Made by a program: the position numbers and the translations under genes
Shown here: piece after piece, positions 5,895 to 63,765 of the stretch
How the letters are laid out: every line of letters begins with the position of its first letter
How positions within the stretch are numbered: position 1 is the stretch's first letter
NCBI GenBank assembly: GCA_964547425.1
Contig: CAZJNH010000007.1
Coordinates: 4,981-68,980 of the forward strand
Source: an uncultured Candidatus Saccharibacteria bacterium
Lineage (GTDB): Bacteria > Patescibacteriota > Saccharimonadia > UBA4664 > CAZJNH01
Direction: 5' to 3'
DNA length: 64,000 nt
Notes under the pieces: model-generated
Database searches by the model: none
Told to the model about the DNA's origin: nothing
What the model saw: only the letters and a program-made list of their open reading frames with translations

Positions 5895-5973
5895 CTTGTA
5901 ACTGTCTCCTCTGGAAAGGGTTACACCCTTAACAGGTTAGCGAAATACAAGTTTTTTGTTTTTTTTGACTCAA
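5895..5973. repeat. stop-codon-proximal structured repeat, copy A: 57-nt imperfect palindrome + A/T spacer + TTGACTCAA box
   Basis: Palindrome CTTGTAACTGTCTCCTCTGGAAAGGGTTACACCCTTAACAGGTTAGCGAAATACAAG at 5895-5951, T-rich spacer, box at 5965-5973. The box ends 4 nt from the stop codon (5978-5980) of the minus-strand gene. Three similar copies lie elsewhere in the window. Confidence 0.7.
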
Positions 5974-5977
5974 ATTT

Positions 5978-6829
5978 TTAGAACTGGTCGGAGGCTTGCC
6001 GGATAGTTTTGGAGATTAGCTTGAGGAGTTCGGGTTGGGTTAGGCGTTCTTCTGGCAGTTCGCGCGAGGCTTTGGCGATTAAATAAGCGGCTGTCGTCAG
6101 CCCCTCGAAAGGTTTGCGCAGGTTTTGCAGCCAGATTACGCTCGCTACTCCAAAGACTACCGTTGCTGGCACCGGCTGCCACGGAGTGACGCTGATTTGC
6201 TGGCCGGCCGCCACAATCAGCTCGGGTCCGTAGACTAGAAATTGAGCTCCAGTTTCGTGAGCCAGAGTTTTGATGATGTCGATCTTGCCGATAAGGCTCG
6301 ATTCTTTGATGTTGATATGAAGTTTGAGGTACTTTGCCAGCTTAAACAGGTCTGGCATCGTGGCGATGACCATCCGGTTGTGCCCTACGAGCAGTTGCGG
6401 ATGGAATTTCATCAAGTCAAACGCTTCGTCGAAGACGATGGCAGGTTTAGCGGCCTTAGTTAAAATTGATTCGATGACGGTAGCGGTTTCACTGTTGCTG
6501 GATAAGCTGGCGCCGATCGCTACGGCGTCTGCGTCCTCAACTAGGCTGACGATCTGGGCGGTCGAGTCTTTGGCGATCGACCCGGCGTGGGTCGAGGGCA
6601 CAAAAGTGAACGATTCACCCGGCAAAAATTTCCTTAAACTGTCCGGCAGAACTACCCGGCACTCCCCAATCTCGGCGGCTTCGGCGGCGGCATAGACATT
6701 CTGGATCGCGTTAAATTCCTGGCTATGCCCACCGACCAACAGTAATCTGCCGGCAAAACGACCACCGACCGGTCGCGTCCAGAGCAAATTAGGAAACAGC
6801 GGATCCTTGTCTTGGCGTAGAAAATCCAC
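5978..6829 (-). CDS. YjeF-C/carbohydrate-kinase-fold protein (putative NAD(P)H-hydrate dehydratase-like)
   Basis: LLLVGGHSQEFNAIQNVYAAAEAAEIGECRVV resembles the YjeF_C lvigGs..y.GA..lA...al.aG motif, and MVIATMPDLFKLAK resembles the TPH.gE..rL segment. The match is divergent. Confidence 0.45.
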   Translation of the reverse strand: MDFLRQDKDPLFPNLLWTRPVGGRFAGRLLLVGGHSQEFNAIQNVYAAAEAAEIGECRVVLPDSLRKFLPGESFTFVPSTHAGSIAKDSTAQIVSLVEDADAVAIGASLSSNSETATVIESILTKAAKPAIVFDEAFDLMKFHPQLLVGHNRMVIATMPDLFKLAKYLKLHINIKESSLIGKIDIIKTLAHETGAQFLVYGPELIVAAGQQISVTPWQPVPATVVFGVASVIWLQNLRKPFEGLTTAAYLIAKASRELPEERLTQPELLKLISKTIRQASDQF

Positions 6830-36666: not shown

Positions 36667-38505
36667 ATGGTGAGGCAAAAGGTCAACACAATTTGGGAGT
36701 ACCGCGGCCGGGTTTTAGCCGGCTTATTCCTCGCCTCCATGCTGGTGCTTGGCCTTCTAAGTATGCGGGGCGACTCCGCGATTGTGGACGAGGTCGCGCA
36801 CATCCCATCCGGCTACAGTTATCTGCACTACCAGGACTACCGCTTAAATCCAGAACACCCGCCGCTAATCAAAGATCTAGCCGCAATTCCGTTGCAATTC
36901 CTGCCGGTCGTGTTCCCTTTGAATATTCCCGCTTGGACAACCGACGCTAACGGGCAATGGGAAACTGGCTGGCATTTTTTGTTCCACGACGGCAACAACG
37001 CCGACCAGATTTTATTCTGGGCGCGGGTGCCGATCCTGCTGCTGGCGGTTTTCTTCGGCTGGATGATCTACAGGTTTTGTAAGAAACACTGGGGCCCCCG
37101 CGCCGCGGTCCTGGCAACATTTCTGTACGCCTTCGAACCAAACATCATGGCACACTCACGGCTGGTGACGACCGATCTCGGTATCGCGGCGTTTGGGTTC
37201 TTTGCTCTGGCTGGTTTTGTCCGCTGGCTAAAAGAACCAAAACCTAAGAACTTCTTCATCGCGGCTGGCTTATTCGCCGCGGCTCAACTAGCAAAGTTCT
37301 CCGGCGTTTTGTTGATCCCGTTCTTTGGACTGATCGCCCTAATTTGGATCTTCACCGCCGAGGAGCCTAAAAAATTCTGGCAGCGGTTTTGGCGCTACGG
37401 CTTGGGGTTAGTTGGCATTTTCGCCGTTGGTTTTGCTCTAATCTGGGCGTTTTACGTACCTCAAACTCTGCATATGCCAGACGCGGTACAGGACCATTTA
37501 ATTACGGTGTCGCTGCCCGACGGATTCCAAAAAGCCCTTGTCCCCTCACTAACCAAGTACAACAATCTGCCAGGCGCGAAGCCACTGGTTCAGTACACCC
37601 TAGGTGTTTTGATGGTGTTTAACCGCGTGTCCGGTGGCAATACCACTTACTTCCGCGGCCAGGTCACTAACCAGAGCTTTAAGGACTACTTCCCTGTAAC
37701 ATACGCTATTAAAACACCGATTCCGCTACTTATCCTTGTTGGACTAAGTTTGCTGTCGGGAGTTTGGCTATACCTGCGCCGCAAGCCCCTGCATGTTTGG
37801 CAAAAATTCCGGGACTACTCCCGCGATCACGTGATAGAACTGACGTTCTTTGGTTTTGTACTGTTTTACGCCGCGTATTCAATTAACGGCAATCTAAACC
37901 TCGGCATCCGCCATTTGATGCCGATCATCCCTCTGATCATCGTTCTGGTAGCCCGCCAAACCGTCCGGCTCTTCGATTACTTGAAAACCAGACTGCCGCG
38001 GACATTAGTGATCGCTGGTTTCGCCGGGCTTTTACTGTGGTACCTAGTTGAAAACATAATGATCTTCCCGCACTACGTCGCTTACTTTAACGAACTGATC
38101 GGCGGGCCAGGAAATGCTTATAAATATGTCACCGACTCAAGCGTCGATTGGGGCCAAGACCTGAAACGGCTCAAAACTTACGTTGACTCAAATCCCGATA
38201 TCGATAAGATTTCCGTCGATTACTTTGGCGGCGGCGAGCCCAAGTACTATTTCTGCTCAAGGAAGTTCGATGCCGCTGGAGCGTTAATCAAGGATTCAAC
38301 TGGGTATGATTGCACTAAATCTAAATACGTCGAATGGCACGCTCAAAACGGCGTTCCCAAAACTAGATATATTGCTGTATCCGAAACCTTCCTGATGAAT
38401 GATTTGTACTACGCACCCAAACGTGGCGATATGGGCTACACTTACTTGCGCGAGAAAACTCCGATAGCTAAAATCGGCTATTCGATCTACGTCTACAAAC
38501 TTTAG
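36667..38505 (+). CDS. GT39/ArnT-PMT-family polyprenyl-phosphate-sugar-dependent glycosyltransferase
   Basis: DEVAHIPSGYSY ... NPEHPPL (DE ... HPPL catalytic-loop motif of PMT/ArnT enzymes). 12+ TM helices, 612 aa. Confidence 0.65.
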   Translation: MVRQKVNTIWEYRGRVLAGLFLASMLVLGLLSMRGDSAIVDEVAHIPSGYSYLHYQDYRLNPEHPPLIKDLAAIPLQFLPVVFPLNIPAWTTDANGQWETGWHFLFHDGNNADQILFWARVPILLLAVFFGWMIYRFCKKHWGPRAAVLATFLYAFEPNIMAHSRLVTTDLGIAAFGFFALAGFVRWLKEPKPKNFFIAAGLFAAAQLAKFSGVLLIPFFGLIALIWIFTAEEPKKFWQRFWRYGLGLVGIFAVGFALIWAFYVPQTLHMPDAVQDHLITVSLPDGFQKALVPSLTKYNNLPGAKPLVQYTLGVLMVFNRVSGGNTTYFRGQVTNQSFKDYFPVTYAIKTPIPLLILVGLSLLSGVWLYLRRKPLHVWQKFRDYSRDHVIELTFFGFVLFYAAYSINGNLNLGIRHLMPIIPLIIVLVARQTVRLFDYLKTRLPRTLVIAGFAGLLLWYLVENIMIFPHYVAYFNELIGGPGNAYKYVTDSSVDWGQDLKRLKTYVDSNPDIDKISVDYFGGGEPKYYFCSRKFDAAGALIKDSTGYDCTKSKYVEWHAQNGVPKTRYIAVSETFLMNDLYYAPKRGDMGYTYLREKTPIAKIGYSIYVYKL

Positions 38506-47728: not shown

Positions 47729-49309
47729 TTACGGCGTCAGCTGCTCGAGCTTGAACTGTGTCGCTCGCTCAGCGGCCATCCGCGTCAACTCCGGACTTTC
47801 TTCGAAGTTAACCATCATCAGGCTGGCGAAGATCGGATGAACGTCGGCCACCAAGCGGTGCATCTTCTGGAAAATCCGCCTGTAGCCTGGATGTCCAGCC
47901 GGCTGCGTCCGAAGCTCCACCATATGGAACAGCGAACGCAGGTTGGTGATGAACCGGTATGGCATCCGGTTTCCCAACAGTGTCGCGTACTGCGCCTCGG
48001 CCTCGAACCCAGCGGCAAAGAGCCGCCAGTAAAGGTCGTGCGAGACGTCGAAACAGAGCTTGAAGTCGGTCGCCAGGCCGGCTTCTTTGACCAGCTCCGG
48101 GATCTCGTACCCATAGTACGGCGTCAGCCGCTGCCACTCGAACGCGTCGACCATCCGGTGGCGCTGGATGTCGCGGAAGGTGCCGTAGTCGGCTGTGATC
48201 TGCCACTCGTAGTGCGCCTTCTCGATCCCTCGCCCCGGCTTATGCCGCCTATTCAGCCGTTCGCCGATGTAGGCCCGAATGACCTCTTCGCGCCGATCGT
48301 CTGTCCAGCCGGCGACCGCGGCTCGGATCTGGTCGAGAGGTTTGTCACTCGCCTCGAACAGCAACTCCGGCACGAGGTCCAACTCGTCCTTCGGCCAACG
48401 GTCGAGCAGTATCACTTCCGCCGCGTTGGTGCGTTCCTCTGGCAGCCAGGCTTTTGCCAGCTCGCGCAAATTGCGCTTGGTGGTGGCCTTGTAGGCGGTG
48501 ATTGCCCCACCCCGGTCAGGCATGTCGGTACGTTCAAGGAACACACCGATCACCTGCCGAGCGGCTTCGAGGATCTGCTGTCCGACGGCCCGGAACTCGA
48601 CGAGATCGTCGCCCAGCAGCCGCATGATCAAGTAATCGACCATTTGGGCGGAGCCGAATATCCCCACCGTCGACTTGGTCGCAACCGGCAGCACCGGCCG
48701 GATCGCGTCGCAGGCCTGGGCGCGTGTCGCTCCCATCCAGGCCACTCGCTTCTCGTCGCCTTGTGGGTGCTTCCGGCGGACATATTCAGCCAACTCACGT
48801 ACCATCTTCGAGTAAAGCTTGAAGATGGTATCAATCGACTCGTTGTAGTCCGCGGTCAACTCACCGAGGTTCGGTGGTGTGTAGTACTTGAAGTTGCCCT
48901 TGGCGTCCTGCTGATCGAAGAAGATGTAGCGGGTCGACTGCTCGAGGTACGAACCCGGCCTTCCCCACTCCAACGCCTTGGTCAGTAGGTTCGACGCGTC
49001 TTCGACGACGAACTGCAGGCCAGCCAGCTGCTGGACGGAGTCGTCGCCATAAGCGGTGATGACTCGGCGCAGTAAGCCCTCAACCTTGTCCTCTTCGGTC
49101 GAGGCGAACTCTTCGAGAATGATCTCGCGAAGGTCGCTACCACGCCTTGAGAGGCGAGCCATGGCTGCCGCCACCATCATCGGTGAAGCGTTTTGGTTGA
49201 ACGCGTACACCTGTGATGTTGGGCTGGTCACGATCTCTGAAAGATACTTATGACCCTCCTCCGTTACAACGAGGTGGTCACCATCCTCCTTCAAGTATGG
49301 GTTGCTCAC
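47729..49309 (-). CDS. flavin-dependent thymidylate synthase ThyX-family, long (tandem-duplicated-type, 526 aa)
   Basis: Two half-domains with degenerate ThyX motifs (QSTRY, then RDIQRHRMVD), and a C-terminal LRSLFHMVELRTQPAGHPGYRRIF matching the ThyX C-terminal helix. Sits in an operon with tmk, dcd and dut. Confidence 0.55.
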   Translation of the reverse strand: MSNPYLKEDGDHLVVTEEGHKYLSEIVTSPTSQVYAFNQNASPMMVAAAMARLSRRGSDLREIILEEFASTEEDKVEGLLRRVITAYGDDSVQQLAGLQFVVEDASNLLTKALEWGRPGSYLEQSTRYIFFDQQDAKGNFKYYTPPNLGELTADYNESIDTIFKLYSKMVRELAEYVRRKHPQGDEKRVAWMGATRAQACDAIRPVLPVATKSTVGIFGSAQMVDYLIMRLLGDDLVEFRAVGQQILEAARQVIGVFLERTDMPDRGGAITAYKATTKRNLRELAKAWLPEERTNAAEVILLDRWPKDELDLVPELLFEASDKPLDQIRAAVAGWTDDRREEVIRAYIGERLNRRHKPGRGIEKAHYEWQITADYGTFRDIQRHRMVDAFEWQRLTPYYGYEIPELVKEAGLATDFKLCFDVSHDLYWRLFAAGFEAEAQYATLLGNRMPYRFITNLRSLFHMVELRTQPAGHPGYRRIFQKMHRLVADVHPIFASLMMVNFEESPELTRMAAERATQFKLEQLTP

Positions 49310-49932
49310 TTCGCCTCCTCAAGTAGTGGTTCGATGTGTTGCCAGACCAGCTCGAAGACTTCTTCGATCGTGCCACTCGCTTCGATCTTCGGCAGATCGC
49401 GGCGGTGAGCTTCGTACTCGTAGCCGAGGATCAGGCGCTGAAGTTCGAGGCTGGACTCGAAGTAGTCAGCCTCCTCATTGCGCTTGGCCATGCGATCTTT
49501 AGCTACATCCCATGGCACTATCAGCACCAGCTCGAGGTCGGGCAGGATGCCGACGTACTCGTGAAGCTCTTCGTCGACGAGCTTGATCAGGGTTCGATCG
49601 ATCCCCTCCGCGAAGCTTTGGTACACGAAGGTCGACAGGCGGTTGCGGTCGCACACCACCCATTCTCCAGCATCGACGTGGCGCTTGATGGTGGTCAAGG
49701 CTTCCACCCGCGCGGCGTTGAACAACATGACGTTCGTCAGCGCCTGTCTTGGTATTGAGTTGGCCTTGAGGATTCGTCGGATCTCATCACCCATCAGCGT
49801 ATTGCCGCCGGGTTCGTAGACCGACACCGCTCGCTTCCCTCTGCGCTCAAGCGCCGCGATGACTCGTTTGACCTGCTCAGTCTTGCCGGCACCGTCGGTG
49901 CCTTCCAGCACGATATAGCGGCCGCGCGACAT
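49306..49932 (-). CDS. tmk: thymidylate kinase
   Basis: LEGTDGAGKT P-loop, a DRN..S..YQ (DRY-type) motif, and a lid region. 208 aa, 4-nt overlap with thyX. Confidence 0.75.
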   Translation of the reverse strand: MSRGRYIVLEGTDGAGKTEQVKRVIAALERRGKRAVSVYEPGGNTLMGDEIRRILKANSIPRQALTNVMLFNAARVEALTTIKRHVDAGEWVVCDRNRLSTFVYQSFAEGIDRTLIKLVDEELHEYVGILPDLELVLIVPWDVAKDRMAKRNEEADYFESSLELQRLILGYEYEAHRRDLPKIEASGTIEEVFELVWQHIEPLLEEAK

Positions 49933-49996
49933 TAATTACCCCCTTGTGAAGTTGCGAACTACCGCCCCTATTCCAGACTAGATTAGCACATAAAAC

Positions 49997-50674
49997 CTAA
50001 AGAGGTTTTGGGGTGGAACGTTTGTCGGTGTAAGCCCGGGGCAACATTTGCTCAGGCTTCCAACTTTTGATAATGGCTTTAATTTCGCCGCTGGTTTGGT
50101 ACTTGCCGGTTTTGCCGTAATGGCGTTTCACCTCCCCGGTTTGGTGAAAAATAATCTGTGCGACGCGCTCCCCGACCGGGAGCGGCACGCTTTTGTGCTG
50201 GTTGAGGTTGTAGACCTCCATCGTCCATCGGTTGATGTAGCCAGGGTCACCCCAGCCCGCGTCGAAACAGCTGGAAATGCCGTTGCGGCCCCAGCTGGAG
50301 CGGGCGCGCATTTCGGTAGTGCCGGGAGGATTGATGCCTATAAATTCGTGGGTGTGCGCCAAGATTCTTTCCCCGGGGCGTAAGACAATAATCGGATGCT
50401 TTTTGCCGATGCCCTTAAACAGCTGATGGCCGTATTTCTTACACCAGTCTTCGTGGGGAATTGCCCGCAGAGCCTTGCCGAAGTAACGGTTAACTTGAGC
50501 CTCATCGAACGGGTTGTAGTAGTCGTAGTTGTTGGGGCTTTCGGTTAGGAAAAACCATTCACCCAAAGTAACGTCAACGCTTGAGCCGCGGATATTTTCA
50601 TCCACAAGCGGATGGATGACGATGTGCCCTGTCTTGAGGGCTGCCTTAATTTCTTGGTCGCTAAATACAGCCAT
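49997..50674 (-). CDS. dcd: dCTP deaminase-family protein (dUTPase superfamily)
   Basis: IHPLVDENIRGSSVDVTLG and AGWGDPGYINRWTMEVYN match the dCTP deaminase active-site segments. 225 aa (longer than the canonical ~190). Confidence 0.65.
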   Translation of the reverse strand: MAVFSDQEIKAALKTGHIVIHPLVDENIRGSSVDVTLGEWFFLTESPNNYDYYNPFDEAQVNRYFGKALRAIPHEDWCKKYGHQLFKGIGKKHPIIVLRPGERILAHTHEFIGINPPGTTEMRARSSWGRNGISSCFDAGWGDPGYINRWTMEVYNLNQHKSVPLPVGERVAQIIFHQTGEVKRHYGKTGKYQTSGEIKAIIKSWKPEQMLPRAYTDKRSTPKPL

Positions 50675-50752
50675 AATGCCCTCTGATTATACCTAAAGTG
50701 CTTCCAGATAAAAGTTGCGTGGCCGGGGACGTCTTCATCCCCGGCCACAGAG

Positions 50753-51757
50753 TTAGGCTCGAAAGCCTGTTGAACCGAAACCTCCGGCCGCCCTTTCAGT
50801 CTCACCAAGCTCATCATAGTCGTCAACGACTATGATCTCCGGGTGCTTAACCGGCTCGAACATTACTTGGATAATCCGGTCGTGTTGCATGACATCGAAC
50901 GGGTCGACACCGTGGTTGATCAGGTCGACGCCGGCCTCCCCGCGATAGTCGGAGTCAACCGTACCCGGTGCGTTGCTATTGGTGAGGGCGAAAACGGTCG
51001 ACAGGCCGCTGCGTGGGGTCAGCCAGTAGACCATATGCTTAGGGAAGGAGGTCGCGAACCCAACACCGACTAGGACCTTCTCTTTTGGCGGCAGGCGGTA
51101 CGACCAGCTGAAACCTTCACCGTCGGGATTGGGTACCGGCACAACGTGGCCAAGGACTCGCGGATCGTCGGGACGGTGCTTGAAATCAAACATCGTCTTG
51201 CGCCAGCGTGGATCCTTGGGATCCATGATCTCCTTGTGCACGATCGCACGGGTATGACCGTCCAGAGCAGCAGAGCCCTCGGTTTTGCGGATCGGCAGAC
51301 GGCCGCCCGGTAGCACCCACATCTTGACGGTGTGTTTGTATTTACCGAACCACAGTTCAATTTCGCGTTGCGCAGCTGCTGCCGAGTCGGAGGCGTGAAC
51401 GAGATTCCGTGGCCCTCCACTAGTGTCGTCGCATAGATCCCCGCGGATGGTTCCTGATTCCGCCTTCTTGGGATCCGTTGCTCCGATCAGGTCTCTCGCC
51501 CTCTTCACGGCGTATTCACCCTGGAGCTCGACGGCGTATAGCGGTTCACGGATCATGAACCCGACGAGGTCGTCGAAGAAGGGCTTGTCTTCATGCTCGG
51601 CATAATGCGACTCGATCTTTTCGAGAGCCGCCAGCACCTTCTTTGACCTAACTACCAGAAGGCCTGCTTCGGCAAATCTCATTACGATCTCGCGTGTCAT
51701 CCCGGCGGCTACAGCGTCGGGCTTAATCAAGACTAACGTCCGCTGGGTCTTCAACAC
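50753..51757 (-). CDS. fusion protein: nucleoside-diphosphate kinase (N-terminal) + dUTP diphosphatase (C-terminal)
   Basis: Residues 1-140: TLVLIKPDAV ... HASDS ... REIELWF (the Ndk fold, catalytic His in the HASDS context). Residues ~190-334: LTPRSGLS ... GTVDSDYRGE (dUTPase motifs III/IV). Confidence 0.75.
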   Translation of the reverse strand: MLKTQRTLVLIKPDAVAAGMTREIVMRFAEAGLLVVRSKKVLAALEKIESHYAEHEDKPFFDDLVGFMIREPLYAVELQGEYAVKRARDLIGATDPKKAESGTIRGDLCDDTSGGPRNLVHASDSAAAAQREIELWFGKYKHTVKMWVLPGGRLPIRKTEGSAALDGHTRAIVHKEIMDPKDPRWRKTMFDFKHRPDDPRVLGHVVPVPNPDGEGFSWSYRLPPKEKVLVGVGFATSFPKHMVYWLTPRSGLSTVFALTNSNAPGTVDSDYRGEAGVDLINHGVDPFDVMQHDRIIQVMFEPVKHPEIIVVDDYDELGETERAAGGFGSTGFRA

Positions 51758-51851
51758 AGCTCCTTAGGGTCGACTAAAAAAGAACAAAGCGGCTCACTGC
51801 CGCCTTGTCGCCCATTCTAAATTCTTTGAAACTTATCCGCAAACCAAAAAC

Positions 51852-51930
51852 CTTGTATTTCGCCTATCTGAAAAGGGTTACACCCTTAACAGATTAGGAA
51901 ATTACATGTTTTGAGAAATTTTTGAGTCAA
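51852..51930. repeat. stop-codon-proximal structured repeat, copy B
   Basis: 57-nt imperfect palindrome CTTGTATTTCGCCTATCTGAAAAGGGTTACACCCTTAACAGATTAGGAAATTACATG (51852-51908), A/T spacer, TTGAGTCAA at 51922-51930, 5 nt from the rplA stop (51936-38). Confidence 0.7.
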
Positions 51931-51935
51931 ATAGG

Positions 51936-52790
51936 TTATTTGTGGAGGTCGGCGAGGAGTTTGTGGGCGTCGAGTTTGACCGATGGGCCCATTGTGCTAG
52001 CGAGTGAAATGTTGAGGATATAAGTGCCTTTGGAGCCGGCCGGTTTGGCGGTTTGGAGGGCGGCAACGACTGCTTTAACGTTGTCGGCGAGATTTTTGTC
52101 GGCAAAGCTAACTTTGCCGACCGACTGGTGGACGATTGCTTGTTTGTCGATGCGAAGCTCTACTTTGCCACTTTTGATTTCTTTTTCAGCCTTTGCGAGG
52201 TCTGCCGTGACGGTGCCGCTCTTGGGGTTAGGCATTAAACCTTTGGGACCGAGTACCTTTGCCACTTTAGCCAGTTTTGGCATCATATCTGGGGTGGTGA
52301 TTAAGATATCGAAGTCGATTTTGCCTTTTTCGATTTCGGCGATGGCTTTCTCACCTTCGGCGCCAGATTTCACGATCTTTACGGTCGGGGTTTTGGCGCT
52401 GCCGCCGGGAAGTACGACGCTGGTCCGGACGATCTGGTCGGATTGCTGTGGGTCAACGCCAAGATTAACGTGAATGTCGATACTCGAATCGAACTTGGTA
52501 GTTGCGGTCTTTTTGACTAAATCAATTCCAGCCGCTAGCTCGTAAGCTTCGGCTTTGTCGATTAACTCAACGACTTTGCGGTAGTTTTTGCCGCGTTTGT
52601 CGAAAGGCGTTTTGACGGCCTTCTCGGCTGCCGCCTTGGCTTTTTCCGAAGTGGAAATGGTTTTTTTAGCCTCACTAGCCTTAGCTTTTTCGGAAGTTGA
52701 GACCTTCTTTTTCTCCGGTTTGGCTTCAGCGGGAATGATGGCTTGCTCGGTATTGTCTTCGGCTGGTGAAACGGCCCTTTTCGCTGCCAT
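51936..52790 (-). CDS. rplA: 50S ribosomal protein L1 with a ~55-aa Lys/Ala/Glu/Ser-rich N-terminal extension
   Basis: Alignable to L1 from GKNYRKVVELIDKAEAY. The preceding 55 aa are low-complexity (KKKVSTSEKAKASEAKK ...) with no internal Met. Confidence 0.85.
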   Translation of the reverse strand: MAAKRAVSPAEDNTEQAIIPAEAKPEKKKVSTSEKAKASEAKKTISTSEKAKAAAEKAVKTPFDKRGKNYRKVVELIDKAEAYELAAGIDLVKKTATTKFDSSIDIHVNLGVDPQQSDQIVRTSVVLPGGSAKTPTVKIVKSGAEGEKAIAEIEKGKIDFDILITTPDMMPKLAKVAKVLGPKGLMPNPKSGTVTADLAKAEKEIKSGKVELRIDKQAIVHQSVGKVSFADKNLADNVKAVVAALQTAKPAGSKGTYILNISLASTMGPSVKLDAHKLLADLHK

Positions 52791-54034: not shown

Positions 54035-55051
54035 TCAGGAGTCAATTCTAGCGTGTTTGAGGCGCTGTTTCAAGAGTTTTAGGACGGCGACCTCGGCTTC
54101 GCCCAAAAGCTCATGTTCGGGGAGCTTTAGCAGCCGGTCGATTTCGCGCAAATAGGATGAAATAGTTTGTCCATCTAGATAGAAATCAATTACCCGGGGA
54201 TCGATGTATGACGCCCTGGCGATAGCCGGAGTATTGCCCAGCTTCTCGGAGACGGTTTTAACGGCTTGAGTAATGTTTCGTTTGGCAGCGGTTTCGGAGG
54301 CGGCGATGCCCAGCTCAGCCAAGGCGACGGCGGCAATCAATGTCCCTGCCCAGGTACGGAAGTCCTTTGCGGAGAAATCGTACCCCATGACTTCCTTGAT
54401 GTAGTCGTTAAGATCATCACTATGAACGTCCCTAAGCTCCCCGTCGTCATGGTAGTACTTGAATATATGGTAACCAGGCAGTTCGTCGAGTTCGGACACT
54501 ACCCGCGCCAATGTCTTATCGATCACCTCCCGTTCGTTATCCTTATGGCTTTTTCCAACGTAATGGAAAATCAAGCGGTCGCCCTCTATTTGCAGGTGCT
54601 TGTGGCGCAAAGTTGTTAATCCGTAGGTTTGGTTTTCCTTCTCGTAAACTTCGTTACCCACTCGAAAATAGGCGGCATCGATTAGCCGCACCATGCAGGC
54701 CAAAACCTTTTCGCGGTTCAGCTCCTTTACTCTAAGATGCTGGCCGGTTACCTTACGCATCATTGGCAGGCCGTTGGCAAACGCCAATATGCGGTCGAAC
54801 TTCTCTTTTTCCTGATGCGCGCGGTAGGTCGGGTTGTAGATATACTGCTTTCGGCCGGCGTCGTCATAGCCGGTAACCAGTATCTTCGAGTGAGGGTGAG
54901 ACGAAATCTCGACTTCCGTCCAGGCAGGCGGAATCGCCAGCCCTTCGATGTATTCCAAGACCTTTGAGTCTTTAACCGCGCCACCGCCGGAGGTCTCGTA
55001 TTTAAACCCTTTTCCGTGCTTAACCCGGTGAATATGGCCTTTGTCAGCCAC
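54035..55051 (-). CDS. type IB DNA topoisomerase (bacterial/poxvirus-like TopIB)
   Basis: 338 aa. Catalytic pentad context: R ... K ... FSAKDFRTWAGT ... H ... and the active-site Tyr in ARASYIDPRV, as in Deinococcus/vaccinia TopIB. Confidence 0.7.
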   Translation of the reverse strand: MADKGHIHRVKHGKGFKYETSGGGAVKDSKVLEYIEGLAIPPAWTEVEISSHPHSKILVTGYDDAGRKQYIYNPTYRAHQEKEKFDRILAFANGLPMMRKVTGQHLRVKELNREKVLACMVRLIDAAYFRVGNEVYEKENQTYGLTTLRHKHLQIEGDRLIFHYVGKSHKDNEREVIDKTLARVVSELDELPGYHIFKYYHDDGELRDVHSDDLNDYIKEVMGYDFSAKDFRTWAGTLIAAVALAELGIAASETAAKRNITQAVKTVSEKLGNTPAIARASYIDPRVIDFYLDGQTISSYLREIDRLLKLPEHELLGEAEVAVLKLLKQRLKHARIDS

Positions 55052-59015: not shown

Positions 59016-60371
59016 GTGTTTGAACAGACCGATTTTGATTTAATCGTCATTGGCAGCGGCGCCGGCGGCGCGGTCGGTGCCAGCTACGCCAGAGGTTTAG
59101 GAAAAAGCGTAGCTTTGTTCGAAAAGGACAAAGTATTGGGCGGTGAGTGCCCCAACTGGGCTTGTGTCCCGACTAAGGCCCTACTGCAAGCGGCGGAGGT
59201 ATACCAATCAGCAAAGAACGCCGGCACCTTTGGTGTTAGCGCATCGAAAGTCACGGTCAGCCAACGGGGCTTGCGCGCTTGGCGCAACAAGGTTGTTTCG
59301 CGCACCGGTGCCGCGCAGGGTGACGCGGTTTTTACCGACGAAGGCATTAAGTTAATAAAAGGGCGCGCTAAATTTGTGTCCGCCGATACGGTTGAGTCAG
59401 GCGGCAAAACCTACTCAGCAAAGCGATTTTTAGTCGCCACCGGGGCTGATCCGCTGATCCCGCAGATCAATGGGCTGAAGCAGACTGGCTTTATCAACTT
59501 TAAGCAAGCGGCCGAGATCAAATCATTGCCAAAATCGATCCTAATTTTGGGAGGCGGGCCGATCGGGTGCGAATTCGCCCAGTTATACGCCGACTTGGGA
59601 GTTAAGGTCACAATTACCGAAGCCGCGGCGCGGTTGTTGCCAAGAGAAGAGCCGGAGGTCGGCCAGCTAATAGCCGAGCTATTCGGCAACCGCGGCATTG
59701 ATGTGCTCCTGGGCTGCAAGGTTAATAAGATCGAACGTAAGGCCGGGCGAAAAATCGCGTATTACAAAGGTGGTAAGGTAGCGTCCGATGAAATTCTAGT
59801 CGCCGCCGGTAAACAAGCGAACTTAGGCTTCGGCGAAGAGGCAGCCGGGATCAAAGTTGATGACGGTAAAATCAGGACCAACGACAAGCTCCAAACCACC
59901 AACTCGCGGGTGTTTGTGGCCGGTGACAACTCTGGAGGGATGCAGTTTACGCACGTTGCGGCATATCAAAGCCGGATGGCGGTCCATAACGCGTTTAATC
60001 GGCGCCAGGTTAAGCCTACCTATACCTCTATTCCCCGCTGCATATTTATTCGTCCGGAGGTAGCCAGCGTTGGTTTTAGTGAAGATGAAGCCAAAAAACG
60101 AGGCATCACAATAAAAAAAGGCATCACTCCGACCGCTATTGTCGGGCGCGCCAATACTAGTAATGAATTCGACGGCTTCGTAAAGGTTATCACCGACAAG
60201 CGAGGCGTTATTATCGGCGCCAGCATCGTCTCGCCCCGAGCCGGCGAATTAATTCACGAACTAGCTTTAGCTATCAAGCTTCGCGCCACCGCCTCCGAAG
60301 TTGCTGAGTTAGTCCACGCCTTCCCGACCTACTCCGAAGCCATAAAAATCGCCTGCGCCGGCATCTCATAA
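59016..60371 (+). CDS. class I pyridine-nucleotide-disulfide oxidoreductase (dihydrolipoyl dehydrogenase-like)
   Basis: DLIVIGSGAGG FAD motif, redox-active CPNWAC (CxxxxC) disulfide, a second NAD Rossmann motif GGGPIGCE, and a C-terminal dimerisation domain with HAFPTYSE (His-Pro-Glu). Confidence 0.7.
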   Translation: MFEQTDFDLIVIGSGAGGAVGASYARGLGKSVALFEKDKVLGGECPNWACVPTKALLQAAEVYQSAKNAGTFGVSASKVTVSQRGLRAWRNKVVSRTGAAQGDAVFTDEGIKLIKGRAKFVSADTVESGGKTYSAKRFLVATGADPLIPQINGLKQTGFINFKQAAEIKSLPKSILILGGGPIGCEFAQLYADLGVKVTITEAAARLLPREEPEVGQLIAELFGNRGIDVLLGCKVNKIERKAGRKIAYYKGGKVASDEILVAAGKQANLGFGEEAAGIKVDDGKIRTNDKLQTTNSRVFVAGDNSGGMQFTHVAAYQSRMAVHNAFNRRQVKPTYTSIPRCIFIRPEVASVGFSEDEAKKRGITIKKGITPTAIVGRANTSNEFDGFVKVITDKRGVIIGASIVSPRAGELIHELALAIKLRATASEVAELVHAFPTYSEAIKIACAGIS

Positions 60372-60379
60372 TCCCAAAT

Positions 60380-60456
60380 TTGACTCAATTTCCCCAAACC
60401 TTGTAATTTCCTTATCTGTTAAGGGTGTAACCCTTTTCAGGTTAGCGGTTTACAAG
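60380..60456. repeat. stop-codon-proximal structured repeat, copy C (opposite orientation, follows a plus-strand gene)
   Basis: TTGACTCAA at 60380-88, 8 nt after the lpd-like stop. A/T spacer. 57-nt palindrome CTTGTAATTTCCTTATCTGTTAAGGGTGTAACCCTTTTCAGGTTAGCGGTTTACAAG at 60400-60456, abutting the stop (60450-52) of the convergent polymerase-domain gene. Confidence 0.7.
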
Positions 60457-61370
60457 CTTTTTTGGAGTTGGGTGAGGCAGGACTTGAGGTTGATGGGTTT
60501 GCCGAGGACGGGGGCCCATAGGTCACCGACTTTGTCGACGCGCTGTTGGAGGTTTTTCATGGTGAACTGGGATGGGTGTAGTTTTTTGGTTACTTCTTCC
60601 CATTTAAGGGGCGTTGATGCCCAGGCGCCTTCGACCGGGCGAATGCTATAGGGCGCGGCTAAGGTTTGCCCACGGCTGTTTTGTAGGTAATCAAGATAGA
60701 CTTTTTTCTGCCGTTTGGCCGGTTTACGTTCAATGCTGGTGAAATCCGGCGCGTTTTGATGCGCGACTGTAGCGATTAACTGCCCAAACTGCCGGCACTG
60801 TTCGTAGTCGTATTTTGCGCCCAGCGGAATGTAGATGTGGATCCCAGTTTTGCCGGAAGTTTTGGGATGTCCAGTTGCGCCGATTTTTTCCAGAACTCGC
60901 CGAACGACTTGCGCCGCTTCAACGACTTTTTCGAAACCGATCGCCTCAGGATCGAGATCGATAATCAGAAAATCTGGGTTATCTGGTTTCTGGATTCTCG
61001 AATTCCAGGGGTTAATCTCAATACAGCCAAGATTTGCCATATACGCGAGAGTGGCTTTGTCTTGGCACAGTAAATAATGGACCGTTTTGCCTTCTTCCGA
61101 CTTATCCTCAAAAGTCTTAGCCCAATCTGGATGCTTTTCAACGTTTTTCTGATAAAAACTCTCGCCGTCGATACCGTGAGGATGGCGGTTTAAGCTCTCC
61201 GGCCGGTCCTTTAAGTACGGCAAAATCGCCTCCGCCATCGACTGGTAGTACTTCAACAAGTCGCTTTTAGTGTAGCCTTCCTTCGGCCAATAAACTTTGT
61301 CGAGGTTCGTAAAGTTAACCTCTTTTCCCTCAATTTCTACCACCTTATCTCTACCCATTTCTACCAGCAA
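60450..61370 (-). CDS. LigD polymerase (primase-polymerase) domain protein, stand-alone
   Basis: 306-aa AEP-family primase-polymerase. VYWPKEGYTKSDLLKYY ... RHPHG ... IDLD ... HIYIPL matches the LigD polymerase-domain motifs. Confidence 0.8.
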   Translation of the reverse strand: MLVEMGRDKVVEIEGKEVNFTNLDKVYWPKEGYTKSDLLKYYQSMAEAILPYLKDRPESLNRHPHGIDGESFYQKNVEKHPDWAKTFEDKSEEGKTVHYLLCQDKATLAYMANLGCIEINPWNSRIQKPDNPDFLIIDLDPEAIGFEKVVEAAQVVRRVLEKIGATGHPKTSGKTGIHIYIPLGAKYDYEQCRQFGQLIATVAHQNAPDFTSIERKPAKRQKKVYLDYLQNSRGQTLAAPYSIRPVEGAWASTPLKWEEVTKKLHPSQFTMKNLQQRVDKVGDLWAPVLGKPINLKSCLTQLQKSL

Positions 61371-61431
61371 AAGCTAAGGGTGTAACCCTTAACAGGTTAG
61401 GAAAATACATGTTTTGTAAAAATTGACTCAA
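61371..61431. repeat. stop-codon-proximal structured repeat, copy D
   Basis: AAGGGTGTAACCCTTAACAGGTTAGGAAAATACATG right arm (61376-61411). The left arm is degenerate where it overlaps the polymerase-domain gene start. TTGACTCAA at 61423-31, 5 nt from the ligD stop (61437-39). Confidence 0.6.
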
Positions 61432-61436
61432 ACTGG

Positions 61437-62966
61437 TCATTTGGGAAGCTCCCGTTTAACTTGCTCCGGCTTTTTGTCTGGACGCATCCCGAGGAAAATC
61501 GGCTGCCGCATTTGTCCCTCGCTAGTCCACTCCTGGAATTTAACCTCACAAACCAGTTTAGGTTTAACCCACGTCGCCTTGGCGTTGGTTTTCACAGGAG
61601 CTTTAAAGGGAGATGAGTCGGTGACAAGCGGCTCGAGCTTGGCGTAAACAGCTTTCAGGCTTGTACCATCGAAACCGCCACCGGTATGGCCGATGTAGAT
61701 TAGCTCCTCTTTCTCGTAAACCCCCAGAATCAGTGCACCAAACAACTCCCTTGCGCCCTTTGGCTCAGTAAATCCGGCGATCACCGCCTCCTGGCTCAAG
61801 TGAGTCTTAATCTTCAGCCAATCCGCTCCGCGTTTCCCAAATTGATAAGTACTCGATTTGCGTTTAGCAACTACCCCTTCTAGCGATTGGCCGTTGGCCG
61901 CCTCAAAGAAGGCCTTGCCGTCTTTTTCAATATGTTCCGACAATTTAATGTGCGGCGATTTTGGCAGCATATTTTTCAGGATTTCCTTGCGTTTAAGCAG
62001 AGGTAACCCGGTCAGGTCGTGTCCATCGAGATGCAAAATATCAAAAACGTAATAAACCAGACTCCCGGATGGCGTTTTGGCGTAATCCTGTAGCAGCCCA
62101 AAGCTGGCTCTGCCCGATTCATCGAGCGCGACCACTTCTCCATCCAAAACCGCCGCGTGCATAACCTTCTCAAGCGCCTTCACGACCGGCGGGAATTTAG
62201 CGTTGAAAGGCTGCAAGTTCCGAGAGTATAGATCTACTTTGCCTTTGTTTATCTCGGCAATAGTCCGATAACCGTCCCATTTAATTTCGAATATCCAATC
62301 AGGATCGTCAAAAGCATCCTCGACTAGGGTACAAAGCATTGGCTTAACGTTGTGCGGAAGCTTGGACTTTGGTGTATCGATCTGGCCGCTCGCTTGTTCG
62401 GCAACCTCCTCGACTTTGAGGTTACTGCGAACTGAGCGGTCTTTCTTGGTGATATCGGCCGTCGAGGTATAACGATCATCTTTTTTAAATAGTAGCCAAG
62501 CATGCTCGCCAGCGGTCTTAAATCTGACTAGAGCAAACAGTCCTTTTATCTTCTTGCCTTCAAGCACAAACACTAGATGCCCAGCCTTTAGCCCTTCGGC
62601 AAGCTCCTTTTCCGATCCAGCTCGATCGATCGCATTTTCAGAGTGATAAGTCCCTTCATCCCAAATAATGACGCTTCCCGCCCCGTACTCCCCTTCCGGT
62701 ATCACGCCCTCAAAGTTGCGGTACTCATAAGGGTGGTCCTCGACCATCATCGCTAGATGTTTCAGGTGGGAAACCAATGAAGGCCCCTTTGGCACCGCCC
62801 AGCTCTTCAGCACGCCATCCATCTCCAGCCGAAAATCGTAATGCAGCTGCGACGCGTCGTGTTTTTGGACGACGAACCGCAAGGCTCCTTTACCTTTAAC
62901 CACCTTGCCAGCCGGCTCAGGAGTTTTATCGAAACTGCGCTTTTTTGAGTATTCCTTGAGAGGCAA
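61437..62966 (-). CDS. ligD: DNA ligase D (N-terminal 3'-phosphoesterase domain + ATP-dependent ligase domain; no polymerase domain)
   Basis: Phosphoesterase: RFVVQKHDASQLHYDFRLE ... SWAVPKGPS ... VEDHPYEY. Ligase: nucleotidyltransferase motif I KWDGYR, followed by an OB domain. 509 aa. Confidence 0.85.
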   Translation of the reverse strand: MPLKEYSKKRSFDKTPEPAGKVVKGKGALRFVVQKHDASQLHYDFRLEMDGVLKSWAVPKGPSLVSHLKHLAMMVEDHPYEYRNFEGVIPEGEYGAGSVIIWDEGTYHSENAIDRAGSEKELAEGLKAGHLVFVLEGKKIKGLFALVRFKTAGEHAWLLFKKDDRYTSTADITKKDRSVRSNLKVEEVAEQASGQIDTPKSKLPHNVKPMLCTLVEDAFDDPDWIFEIKWDGYRTIAEINKGKVDLYSRNLQPFNAKFPPVVKALEKVMHAAVLDGEVVALDESGRASFGLLQDYAKTPSGSLVYYVFDILHLDGHDLTGLPLLKRKEILKNMLPKSPHIKLSEHIEKDGKAFFEAANGQSLEGVVAKRKSSTYQFGKRGADWLKIKTHLSQEAVIAGFTEPKGARELFGALILGVYEKEELIYIGHTGGGFDGTSLKAVYAKLEPLVTDSSPFKAPVKTNAKATWVKPKLVCEVKFQEWTSEGQMRQPIFLGMRPDKKPEQVKRELPK

Positions 62967-62967
62967 A

Positions 62968-63765
62968 TTAACCCCTGGCTTTCGCTTTTTCTCGCTCTTT
63001 GTGCTTTTCCAGGCTGGCCTTTAACATCACCATCAAATCCTTAACCTCGGTATCCGCCGGCGGTGCAGATCGACCGACCTTAACGGGCTTGCCTTTGGCT
63101 TTCGTTTCGATTATTTTCTCCAGATCTTCTTTGTAGGTGTCGTGAAACTGTTCCGGCTTAAACGGCCCGGACAGCTGATCGATTAAAGCCAGGGCCATAT
63201 CGACCTCTTTTTTGCTGACCTCGGTGTCGGGCAGGCTCAACTCATCTTTGGGTCTGATGTCGTCCTTATAGCGCATCTGGTCAAGGATCAGTGCTTTGCC
63301 GCTCGGCTTAAGCGCTGCCAGGTGTTCTTTACTTTGCAGGACAAACTTGGCGATGCCAACCTTACCAGATCGCTCTAACGCCTCGCGCAGCAAAACGTAG
63401 GGCTTTTCGGCGCCTTTTTCCGGTTCCAGGTAATAGGGTTTGTCGAAATAAATATCGTCGATCTCATCGGCCTTAACGAAATCAACGACATTGATGCTAT
63501 GGGTTTTTTTCACGTCGGCTGTTTCGAAATCTGCGTCGGTTAAGACTACATAATCCCCTTTTTCATACTCGTAGCCCTTTACGATATCCTCGTAGGCCAC
63601 TTCCTTGCCGTCGCTTTTTCGCACCCTGACGTAATGAATTGGCGACAGCGTTTCTTTGTCGAGCATGTCGAAGCTCAACTCAGTTCCAGCCGTCGCGCTG
63701 TAAAGCCTGACCGGAACGTTAACTAACCCGAAACTAAGTGAGCCTTTCCAGATTGGCCGCATCAT
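62968..63765 (-). CDS. ku: Ku end-binding protein
   Basis: RPIWKGSLSFGLVNVPVRLY is a canonical bacterial Ku N-terminus. 265 aa with a basic C-terminal tail. Confidence 0.9.
   Translation of the reverse strand: MMRPIWKGSLSFGLVNVPVRLYSATAGTELSFDMLDKETLSPIHYVRVRKSDGKEVAYEDIVKGYEYEKGDYVVLTDADFETADVKKTHSINVVDFVKADEIDDIYFDKPYYLEPEKGAEKPYVLLREALERSGKVGIAKFVLQSKEHLAALKPSGKALILDQMRYKDDIRPKDELSLPDTEVSKKEVDMALALIDQLSGPFKPEQFHDTYKEDLEKIIETKAKGKPVKVGRSAPPADTEVKDLMVMLKASLEKHKEREKAKARG

Follow-up and report, generated by a model that had tools for sequence, protein, structure and literature searches.

A box-and-hairpin repeat beside stop codons in a Saccharibacteria genome, probably a lineage-specific subfamily of palindromic insertion elements

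A short repeat, made of a small palindromic box followed by a long hairpin, occurs four times in a 64,000-nucleotide stretch of DNA from an uncultured Candidatus Saccharibacteria bacterium (the window, meaning the whole stretch analysed). Each copy lies a few nucleotides past a stop codon. Is the repeat a signal that belongs to the genes it follows, or is it DNA that was inserted beside them? The sequence-only reading of the locus had offered three candidate roles: a structure that processes or stabilises mRNA 3′ ends, a protein-binding site, or a mobile repeat of the MITE/REP type. The third role is favoured by empty sites in related genomes, by relatives of the element lying in frame within genes, and by covarying stems. 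With a probability of about 0.65, the four copies represent a box-bearing branch, specific to this lineage, of the short and non-autonomous palindromic insertion elements that occur in Saccharibacteria-like (CPR) bacteria.

Read from the box side, all copies share one layout: a stop codon, a gap of 4, 5, 8 and 5 nt in copies A, B, C and D, respectively (counted from the ORF ends at 5978, 51936, 60371 and 61437, and within the 4–8 nt first described), the box TTGA(C/G)TCAA, a spacer, a proximal arm, a core and a distal arm (Table 1). The spacer is A/T-rich, as previously noted, and ends in CAAA(A)C; its length is 11–13 nt, not 11–14 nt. The proximal arm has 19 nt and starts with C(T/A)TGTA, the core is TTAAGGGT-GTA-ACCCTT, and the distal arm has 21 nt and ends with TACAAG. 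A palindrome of about 57 nt had been ascribed to all four copies. It is present at 57 nt in the three full copies, A, B and C, while D is a half copy from which the distal arm is missing. The centre, previously given as GGGT(G/T)TAACCC, is instead GGGTGTAACCC or its reverse complement GGGTTACACCC.

Among the copies, core and box hardly vary, and the arms are only 62–89% identical. The box is retained in all four copies and extends to an 11-bp palindrome (TTTGASTCAAA) in A and B, while the spacer is variable. In B and C, the long palindrome reaches further out through CAAAAC/GTTTTG pairing. The repeat is asymmetric, with the box on one side and no inverted partner at the distal end, and three of the four copies have the same chromosomal orientation. 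With the GTGTAAC centre of the window copies, two of the three gene-sense frames contain a stop codon at the core. When the copies are oriented by their boxes, the 3-nt loop of D is TAC (61375–61391), the reverse complement of the GTA found in the cores of A–C (5916–5930, 51873–51887 and 60421–60435). The core hairpin seems to have undergone a flip-flop inversion here, unless a symmetric parallel mutation gave the same result.

Table 1. Copies of the repeat, a neighbouring terminator, orthologous sites and in-frame relatives. Positions refer to the window unless preceded by an L number.
Feature	Position	Strand	Details
Copy A, full	5895..5973	-	box 5965-5973, spacer 5952-5964, palindrome 5895-5951 (57 nt)
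Copy B, full	51852..51930	-	box 51922-51930, spacer 51909-51921, palindrome 51852-51908
Copy C, full	60380..60456	+	box 60380-60388, spacer 60389-60399, palindrome 60400-60456
Copy D, half	61373..61431	-	box 61423-61431, spacer 61412-61422, proximal arm 61393-61411, core hairpin 61375-61391
Ordinary intrinsic terminator	51783..51809	-	GACAAGGCGGCAGTGAGCCGCTTTGTT then CTTTTTT; 42 nt downstream of B; not part of the repeat
Site B (after rplA)			empty in L012, L028; filled in the window
Site C (lpd / ligD-pol)			empty in L012, L021, L029, L030; filled in the window
Site D (ligD / ligD-pol)			empty in L012, L022; filled in the window, L021, L029, L030
queA in-frame copies	L008 915-985; L009 3668-3738; L014; L016; L017
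mnmA in-frame copies	L002 3170-3240; L005 740-810
lepA in-frame copy	L015 349-419
holA in-frame copy	L006 about 1001-1029

The four copies that the sequence-only reading had located are real, as box, core, profile HMM and covariance-model scans all agree on them. The box TTGASTCAA was observed five times in the window against 0.44 expected, and four of the five lie within repeat copies. The fifth, TTGACTCAA at 38183–38191, stands alone without a hairpin in a PMT_2 glycosyltransferase ORF (36667–38505) and is probably a chance or coding occurrence. The core AAGGGTKWAACCCTT was found in the window only in the four copies. A profile HMM built from them recovered these sites with E-values of 1e-18 to 1e-29 and gave no further match in the 64 kb, and a covariance model of the wider family described below, run over the whole window with filters off, returned the same four copies and no others. 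Logan contigs from two runs (SRR9179560 and SRR9179562) are 100% identical to the window over B (L023 and L024), D, and C up to its core, so these copies are not assembly artefacts. Two independent Logan contigs, L019 and L020, end at the same base in the core of C (window position 60418), which suggests that the copy number of the repeat is high enough to disrupt de Bruijn assembly of the source organism.

The description of the element as an unannotated structured repeat holds, and no Rfam family covers it. At the gathering score, only two tRNAs and the L10 leader pass in the window, and the repeat is unmatched. In E-value mode, the sole overlap is a chance DUF805b match on B (17.9 bits against the 35.6 needed, E = 2.3). 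In the literature searched, no palindromic repeat family is described for Saccharibacteria or Patescibacteria.

Copy A lies between the stop codon of a weakly YjeF-C-like ORF (5978–5980, minus strand) and the 3′ end of a convergent tRNA-Leu(CAA) gene (5879, plus strand). Copy B follows the stop of rplA (51936–51938, minus), and its neighbours are on the same strand. Copy C follows the stop of an lpd-like oxidoreductase gene (60369–60371, plus), and here the neighbours are convergent. Copy D lies between the ligD stop (61437–61439, minus) and the ATG of the same-strand ligD primase-polymerase gene, ligD-pol (61358). Three of the four preceding genes are as previously identified. The fourth, called YjeF-like, is only weakly supported (Carb_kinase at E = 0.005, below the cut-off, and TM0922 at E = 7.6e-4). 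The further claim that the element is not a regulon signal is supported. ORFs cover about 95% of the window, where 4-nt overlaps between neighbouring genes are common, and no transposase, integrase, HUH/Y1 (RAYT) gene or IS was found among its approximately 60 scanned ORFs. Judged by gene content and best matches alone, the DNA would come from a member of the Patescibacteria (CPR), most likely a relative of Saccharibacteria. In B, C and D, the TGA of the box shares the reading frame of the preceding ORF and lies 3–4 codons past the real stop (51922–51935, 60372–60388 and 61423–61436, respectively); in A it does not. The chance of such an in-frame TGA in these three copies is approximately 0.11, and it could act as a backup stop.

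The window and its relatives have other features of their own. Nucleotide-metabolism genes stand between the rplKA and rplJL operons (window 47729–51757): an NDK-dUTPase fusion (50753–51757), a dCTP deaminase-like gene (49997–50674), an ORF of 208 aa, and a protein of 526 aa that has two ThyX (Thy1) stretches. In the relative L012, ThyA and DHFR follow rplA instead. RplA itself (51936–52790) has a Lys/Ala/Glu-rich N-terminal extension of about 60–90 residues, with the Pfam L1 domain starting at residue 92; the RplA proteins of relatives are also long (271–350 aa). The nusG–rplK spacer of L028 (3393–3509) holds tandem arrays of CCCGATT (about four units) and TTGTTTC (about three units). Although the genome is very small and compact, it has a bacterial type IB topoisomerase gene (54035–55051) and a non-homologous end joining cluster (60450–63765) of Ku, a LigD phosphoesterase-ligase and a separate LigD primase-polymerase. 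Within the ligD coding sequence of L012 (2259–2299), two box-like sequences, ATTTGAGTCAAAAT and ATTTGACTCAAAT, are 32 nt apart, and one more is found in ligD of L022; as codons they spell FESK and DLTQI, and the resemblance is probably a coincidence.

Orthologous loci of relatives, fetched through LigD-pol and RplA homologues, show how these junctions look without the element. None of the relatives examined has the element at site B or at site C, and site D is mixed, which is the filled/empty polymorphism expected of a MITE. At site C, the convergent lpd-like and ligD-pol genes overlap by 9–24 nt in L012, L021 and L030 and abut in L029; L022 has an unrelated ordinary terminator at this position. 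In the window, both C-termini are intact at this site (CLTQLQKSL* aligns with CLKKLENLL* of L021), and the distal TTACAAG of copy C, read as CTTGTAA, overlaps ligD-pol and supplies its last Leu codon and stop (60450–60452). At site D, ligD and ligD-pol overlap by ATGA in L012 and L022. In the window, 78 nt separate them, which include box, spacer, arm and core, with AAATG on either side. This duplication is needed anyway for the stop and start codons, and no consistent target-site duplication is present at A, B or C. Since the empty site D carries no box, the box is part of the inserted unit and not a pre-existing target. The absence of the element from orthologous gene junctions shows that the element, box included, is inserted DNA and not a gene-specific 3′ signal.

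Site D has a longer history. L021, L030 and L029 (the latter to its contig end) have full palindromes there without a box, with cores that differ yet pair (AAGGATC/GATCCTT and AAGGGA/TCCCTT). The N-terminus of LigD-pol reads MG(R/K)(D/E)K in the four genomes with a filled site D versus MSGR in the empty ones. We read site D as an old insertion common to a clade, and the retention of its palindrome in four species with compensatory core changes hints, given how compact the genome is, at a host function, not pure selfishness.

The repeat also has relatives elsewhere. A scan for the core in one genome per species (185,579 species genomes) gave 11 loci, six of them in Saccharibacteria MAGs; the other five were judged to be chance matches, given that about nine were expected. 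A metagenome scan added six further loci. The box-bearing variant of the window was found in none of the 185,579 species genomes and in none of the JGI metagenomes. The palindrome of the wider family is AAATCACA...CTGTTAAGGGT-N3-ACCCTTAACAG...TGTGATTT, and its proximal arm ATTTTCCTCATCTGTTAAGGGT is plainly homologous to the window arm ATTTCCTAATCTGTTAAGGGT. The core is shared with the window, and the outer arms differ yet stay complementary. Many of these copies lie in frame within the conserved genes queA, mnmA, lepA and holA, and some of these genes are essential. Compared with solved homologues, the inserts amount to 11 aa in QueA (1vky), 24 aa in MnmA (2hma) and 17 aa in LepA (2ywe), and the added peptides include (LL/DT)RVKPLTD(E/G)ENVIS and SVKGLTL(N/S)RE, among others. 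One contig has two copies, the first between divergent gene starts and the second 3 nt past a stop.

Covariation of the stem, proposed earlier as a check, is visible only at the level of this wider family. The three full window copies have a single compensatory pair and are uninformative. Across nine family members, 90.8% of the cells are paired against 80.1% in shuffles (reached by 0 of 500 shuffles), seven pairs are changed on both sides, and slid controls are 38–51% paired. The outer stem alternates between CTTGTA/TACAAG, ATCACA/TGTGAT and other forms. Thus the stems do covary, and the outcome that the earlier reading had named as a refutation, stems that fail to do so, did not arise. The symmetry of a DNA palindrome can, however, persist through template-switch correction, so this covariation proves neither selection nor an RNA function. 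As judged by eye, G·U pairs favour the gene-sense strand in A–C and the antisense strand in the queA insertion, and therefore point to no consistent RNA polarity.

Why do all four copies sit directly after stop codons? This placement had been presented as a feature of the element itself. In a genome of about 95% ORF, with genes that overlap by 4 nt, a surviving insertion is forced to abut a stop codon, and the post-stop position is mostly a matter of gene packing. After subtraction of the element, the spacer at A is about 19 nt and those at C and D are zero or negative. Only B had space to land elsewhere, as about 94 nt are left between its hairpin and the next gene. Similar care applies to the polarity with respect to transcription that had been claimed for the repeat. 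Orientation is informative for B and D and weakly for A, and these agree (2–3 of 2–3, p of about 0.125–0.25). Copy C is uninformative, because its convergent genes put a stop beside either end. A polarity with respect to transcription is possible but unproven.

The strongest alternative is that the repeat, whatever its origin, is a host 3′-end module, namely a partly bidirectional terminator or a barrier to 3′-exonucleases that insulates packed genes. Several observations point that way. The absence of a U-tract in gene sense, on which the earlier rejection of a terminator was based, holds for A. It does not hold for B (GGUUUUUGG) and C (CUUUUUUGG), which have runs of U5–U6 after the hairpin, and in D a terminator scan flagged the core hairpin with UUUUGC. 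On the opposite strand, a T-run directly follows the hairpin in all four copies; in A it is T6GT8 (TTTTTTGTTTTTTTT) and faces the convergent tRNA-Leu. The predicted RNA folds are stronger in gene sense for B (z −4.2) and C (z −3.8) than in antisense (−2.2 and −2.3), with A at −1.4 and D reduced to the core hairpin. The lineage uses ordinary intrinsic terminators, and the hairpin at site D was kept with compensatory changes in four species. It is therefore plausible, from the sequence, that some copies are used as terminators.

As an account of the repeat as a whole, we nevertheless consider a host 3′-end module unlikely. The U-run after C belongs to the native coding part of ligD-pol, A lacks a U-tract in gene sense, and the bases of the long stems are A/U-rich (CUUGUA/UACAAG), poor for termination and unflagged by the terminator scan. 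A separate canonical terminator 42 nt past B makes B unneeded there and, by implication, places B in the rplA 3′ UTR as a transcribed passenger, while a terminator at D would sever ligD-pol from ligD. Moreover, termination would do harm at the positions of some related copies, which are inside coding genes or between the starts of divergent genes, and the box is left unexplained.

A bolder proposal combines box and hairpin into either a domesticated, strand-polar 3′-end module or the end of a new hairpin-dependent, HUH-like class of mobile element specific to Patescibacteria. We give it rather little credence. If the former were true, a protein-recognised box would stand in register with the stop codon (its TGA being in frame in B, C and D), and the hairpin would set the mRNA 3′ end or insulate neighbours in an ultra-compact CPR genome. 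If the latter were true, the element would also remodel essential proteins by in-frame insertion.

In a more conventional form, the repeat could be the end of a HUH/Y1 single-strand element (REP/RAYT- or IS200/IS605-like), with the box as the cleavage or recognition site 5′ of the hairpin and a polarity that is intrinsic and relative to replication rather than to transcription. The asymmetric layout of motif, 11–13 nt and hairpin with no motif opposite would suit such an end, as would the flipped loop of D, which is expected from hairpin or cruciform intermediates, and the common chromosomal orientation of three copies. Yet a Y1 transposase is absent from the 64-kb window, the empty sites have no box that could have been a pre-existing target, and box-less relatives are equally widespread, which makes this reading improbable.

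The box could also be an operator-like site of a dimeric DNA-binding protein, with the hairpin incidental and the four genes under common control or insulation. The perfect palindromy of the box over 9 bp (11 bp in A and B), its excess over expectation and its conservation beside a variable spacer would fit a bound site. Against this, the only box outside the repeat in the window is within an ORF, and those in the repeat are downstream of unrelated genes and not in promoters. Orthologous sites carry no box, nor do the palindromes of relatives at site D, and in the window the box always travels with the palindrome as one inserted unit. We regard a regulatory operator as very improbable, marginally the least credible of these readings.

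Other candidates were rejected more directly. As a promoter, with TTGACT of the box as −35 and TGTAAT/TGTATT 16–18 nt downstream as −10, the repeat would lack the essential A at position 2 of the −10 element, no such site appeared in a promoter scan, and the transcripts of two copies out of four would be antisense. A conserved distal motif TTGGAG is dismissed because past C these letters are part of the native ligD-pol gene and align with the C-terminus in L021 as homologous coding sequence. The same hexamer occurs as a threefold tandem (positions 32, 38 and 44, within 28–50) at the start of the window. An IS608-like use of the box as a pre-existing target does not agree with box-less empty sites. 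By eye, box and spacer show no match to the IHF consensus WATCAANNNNTTR. A pair of DNA uptake sequences (DUS/USS) would call for a half-site that is greatly over-represented as single copies throughout the genome, yet GTTAAGGGT and its complement are found in the window only inside the four copies. Integron attC sites, with their R''/L''-L'/R' core sites, form cassette arrays beside intI, whereas the window has no integrase and its copies are dispersed behind housekeeping genes whose order is conserved in relatives. A phage origin has only three chance core matches from a viral scan, without palindromic arms.

We therefore return to short palindromic insertion elements and to their counterparts in other bacteria. 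REP/REPIN sequences are extragenic imperfect palindromes concentrated just past stop codons, in which a conserved 5′ motif gives polarity. They are transcribed into 3′ UTRs, and can stabilise mRNA or affect termination. The repeat resembles them in layout only, with a box and hairpin 4–8 nt past the stop in four of four copies. It differs by having a 9-bp palindrome 11–13 nt from the stem instead of a GTAG tetranucleotide at the stem foot, by the lack in the 64-kb window of a RAYT gene, which REPs usually flank, and by related copies inside ORFs. With classical MITEs (Correia/NEMIS, ERIC), it has in common that it is non-autonomous and multi-copy, with a long hairpin, filled and empty sites, and a probable co-transcription. 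Its size also fits a MITE (<300 bp, non-coding, multi-copy), with four copies of approximately 60–80 nt in 64 kb. In contrast to MITEs, it has a one-sided asymmetry, lacks defined terminal inverted repeats that would match those of an IS, and is not consistently flanked by a target-site duplication.

The Rickettsia palindromic elements (RPE) of approximately 100–150 bp are found between genes and in frame inside conserved genes, in a reduced genome, with no obvious terminal inverted repeats, target-site duplications or cognate transposase, and their in-frame insertion is unusually frequent (PMC10969869). Our repeat and its relatives are likewise short palindromes, intergenic as well as in frame. 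In-frame insertion is seen in the related subfamily (queA, mnmA, lepA, holA) and not in the window, where four of four copies are intergenic. The comparison is meant as an analogy only, as the phylum is another one, the elements are about 60–80 nt long, and they have a one-sided box that RPE lack. SPRITE-type repeats are small and mobile, with a hairpin and T-run like those of an intrinsic terminator (PMC10969869). All four window copies have T-runs on one strand or the other, but their stem base is A/U-rich and the box has no SPRITE counterpart. Taken together, the element probably belongs to a REP/RPE/SPRITE-like class and is apparently undescribed, if conceptually familiar. Several observations weigh against the mobile-repeat reading, among them the lack of a transposase, integrase or HUH gene in the 64-kb window, the lack of clear terminal inverted repeats or of a target-site duplication, and the fact that only four box-bearing copies are known.

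How such palindromic elements could arrive and persist may be outlined as follows. An enzyme supplied in trans would recognise the conserved core hairpin, and perhaps in the source lineage also the box, and copies would spread. Our best guess is that the mobilising enzyme recognises the box, since the box accompanies the active, lineage-specific version of the element and is conserved like the core. In a genome of such ORF density, an insertion would survive only at a gene junction or at an in-frame position that tolerates it, and this would explain why the copies lie next to stop codons. After insertion, the element would be transcribed as a 3′ UTR or intercistronic hairpin. With A-rich and T-rich runs flanking the stem, some copies probably act as terminators now, most clearly A (for the tRNA-Leu gene) and, in gene sense, B and C.

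On their own, the four copies in the window are a modest example and establish no new principle. If the family is confirmed, it would mean that ultra-small, compact genomes still carry proliferating palindromic DNA, and that this DNA makes intergenic spacers where genes once overlapped, can donate stop codons, and adds inserts of 11–24 residues to QueA, MnmA, LepA and HolA. The family may also help to explain unusual protein insertions in CPR bacteria and some of the assembly breaks in their MAGs.
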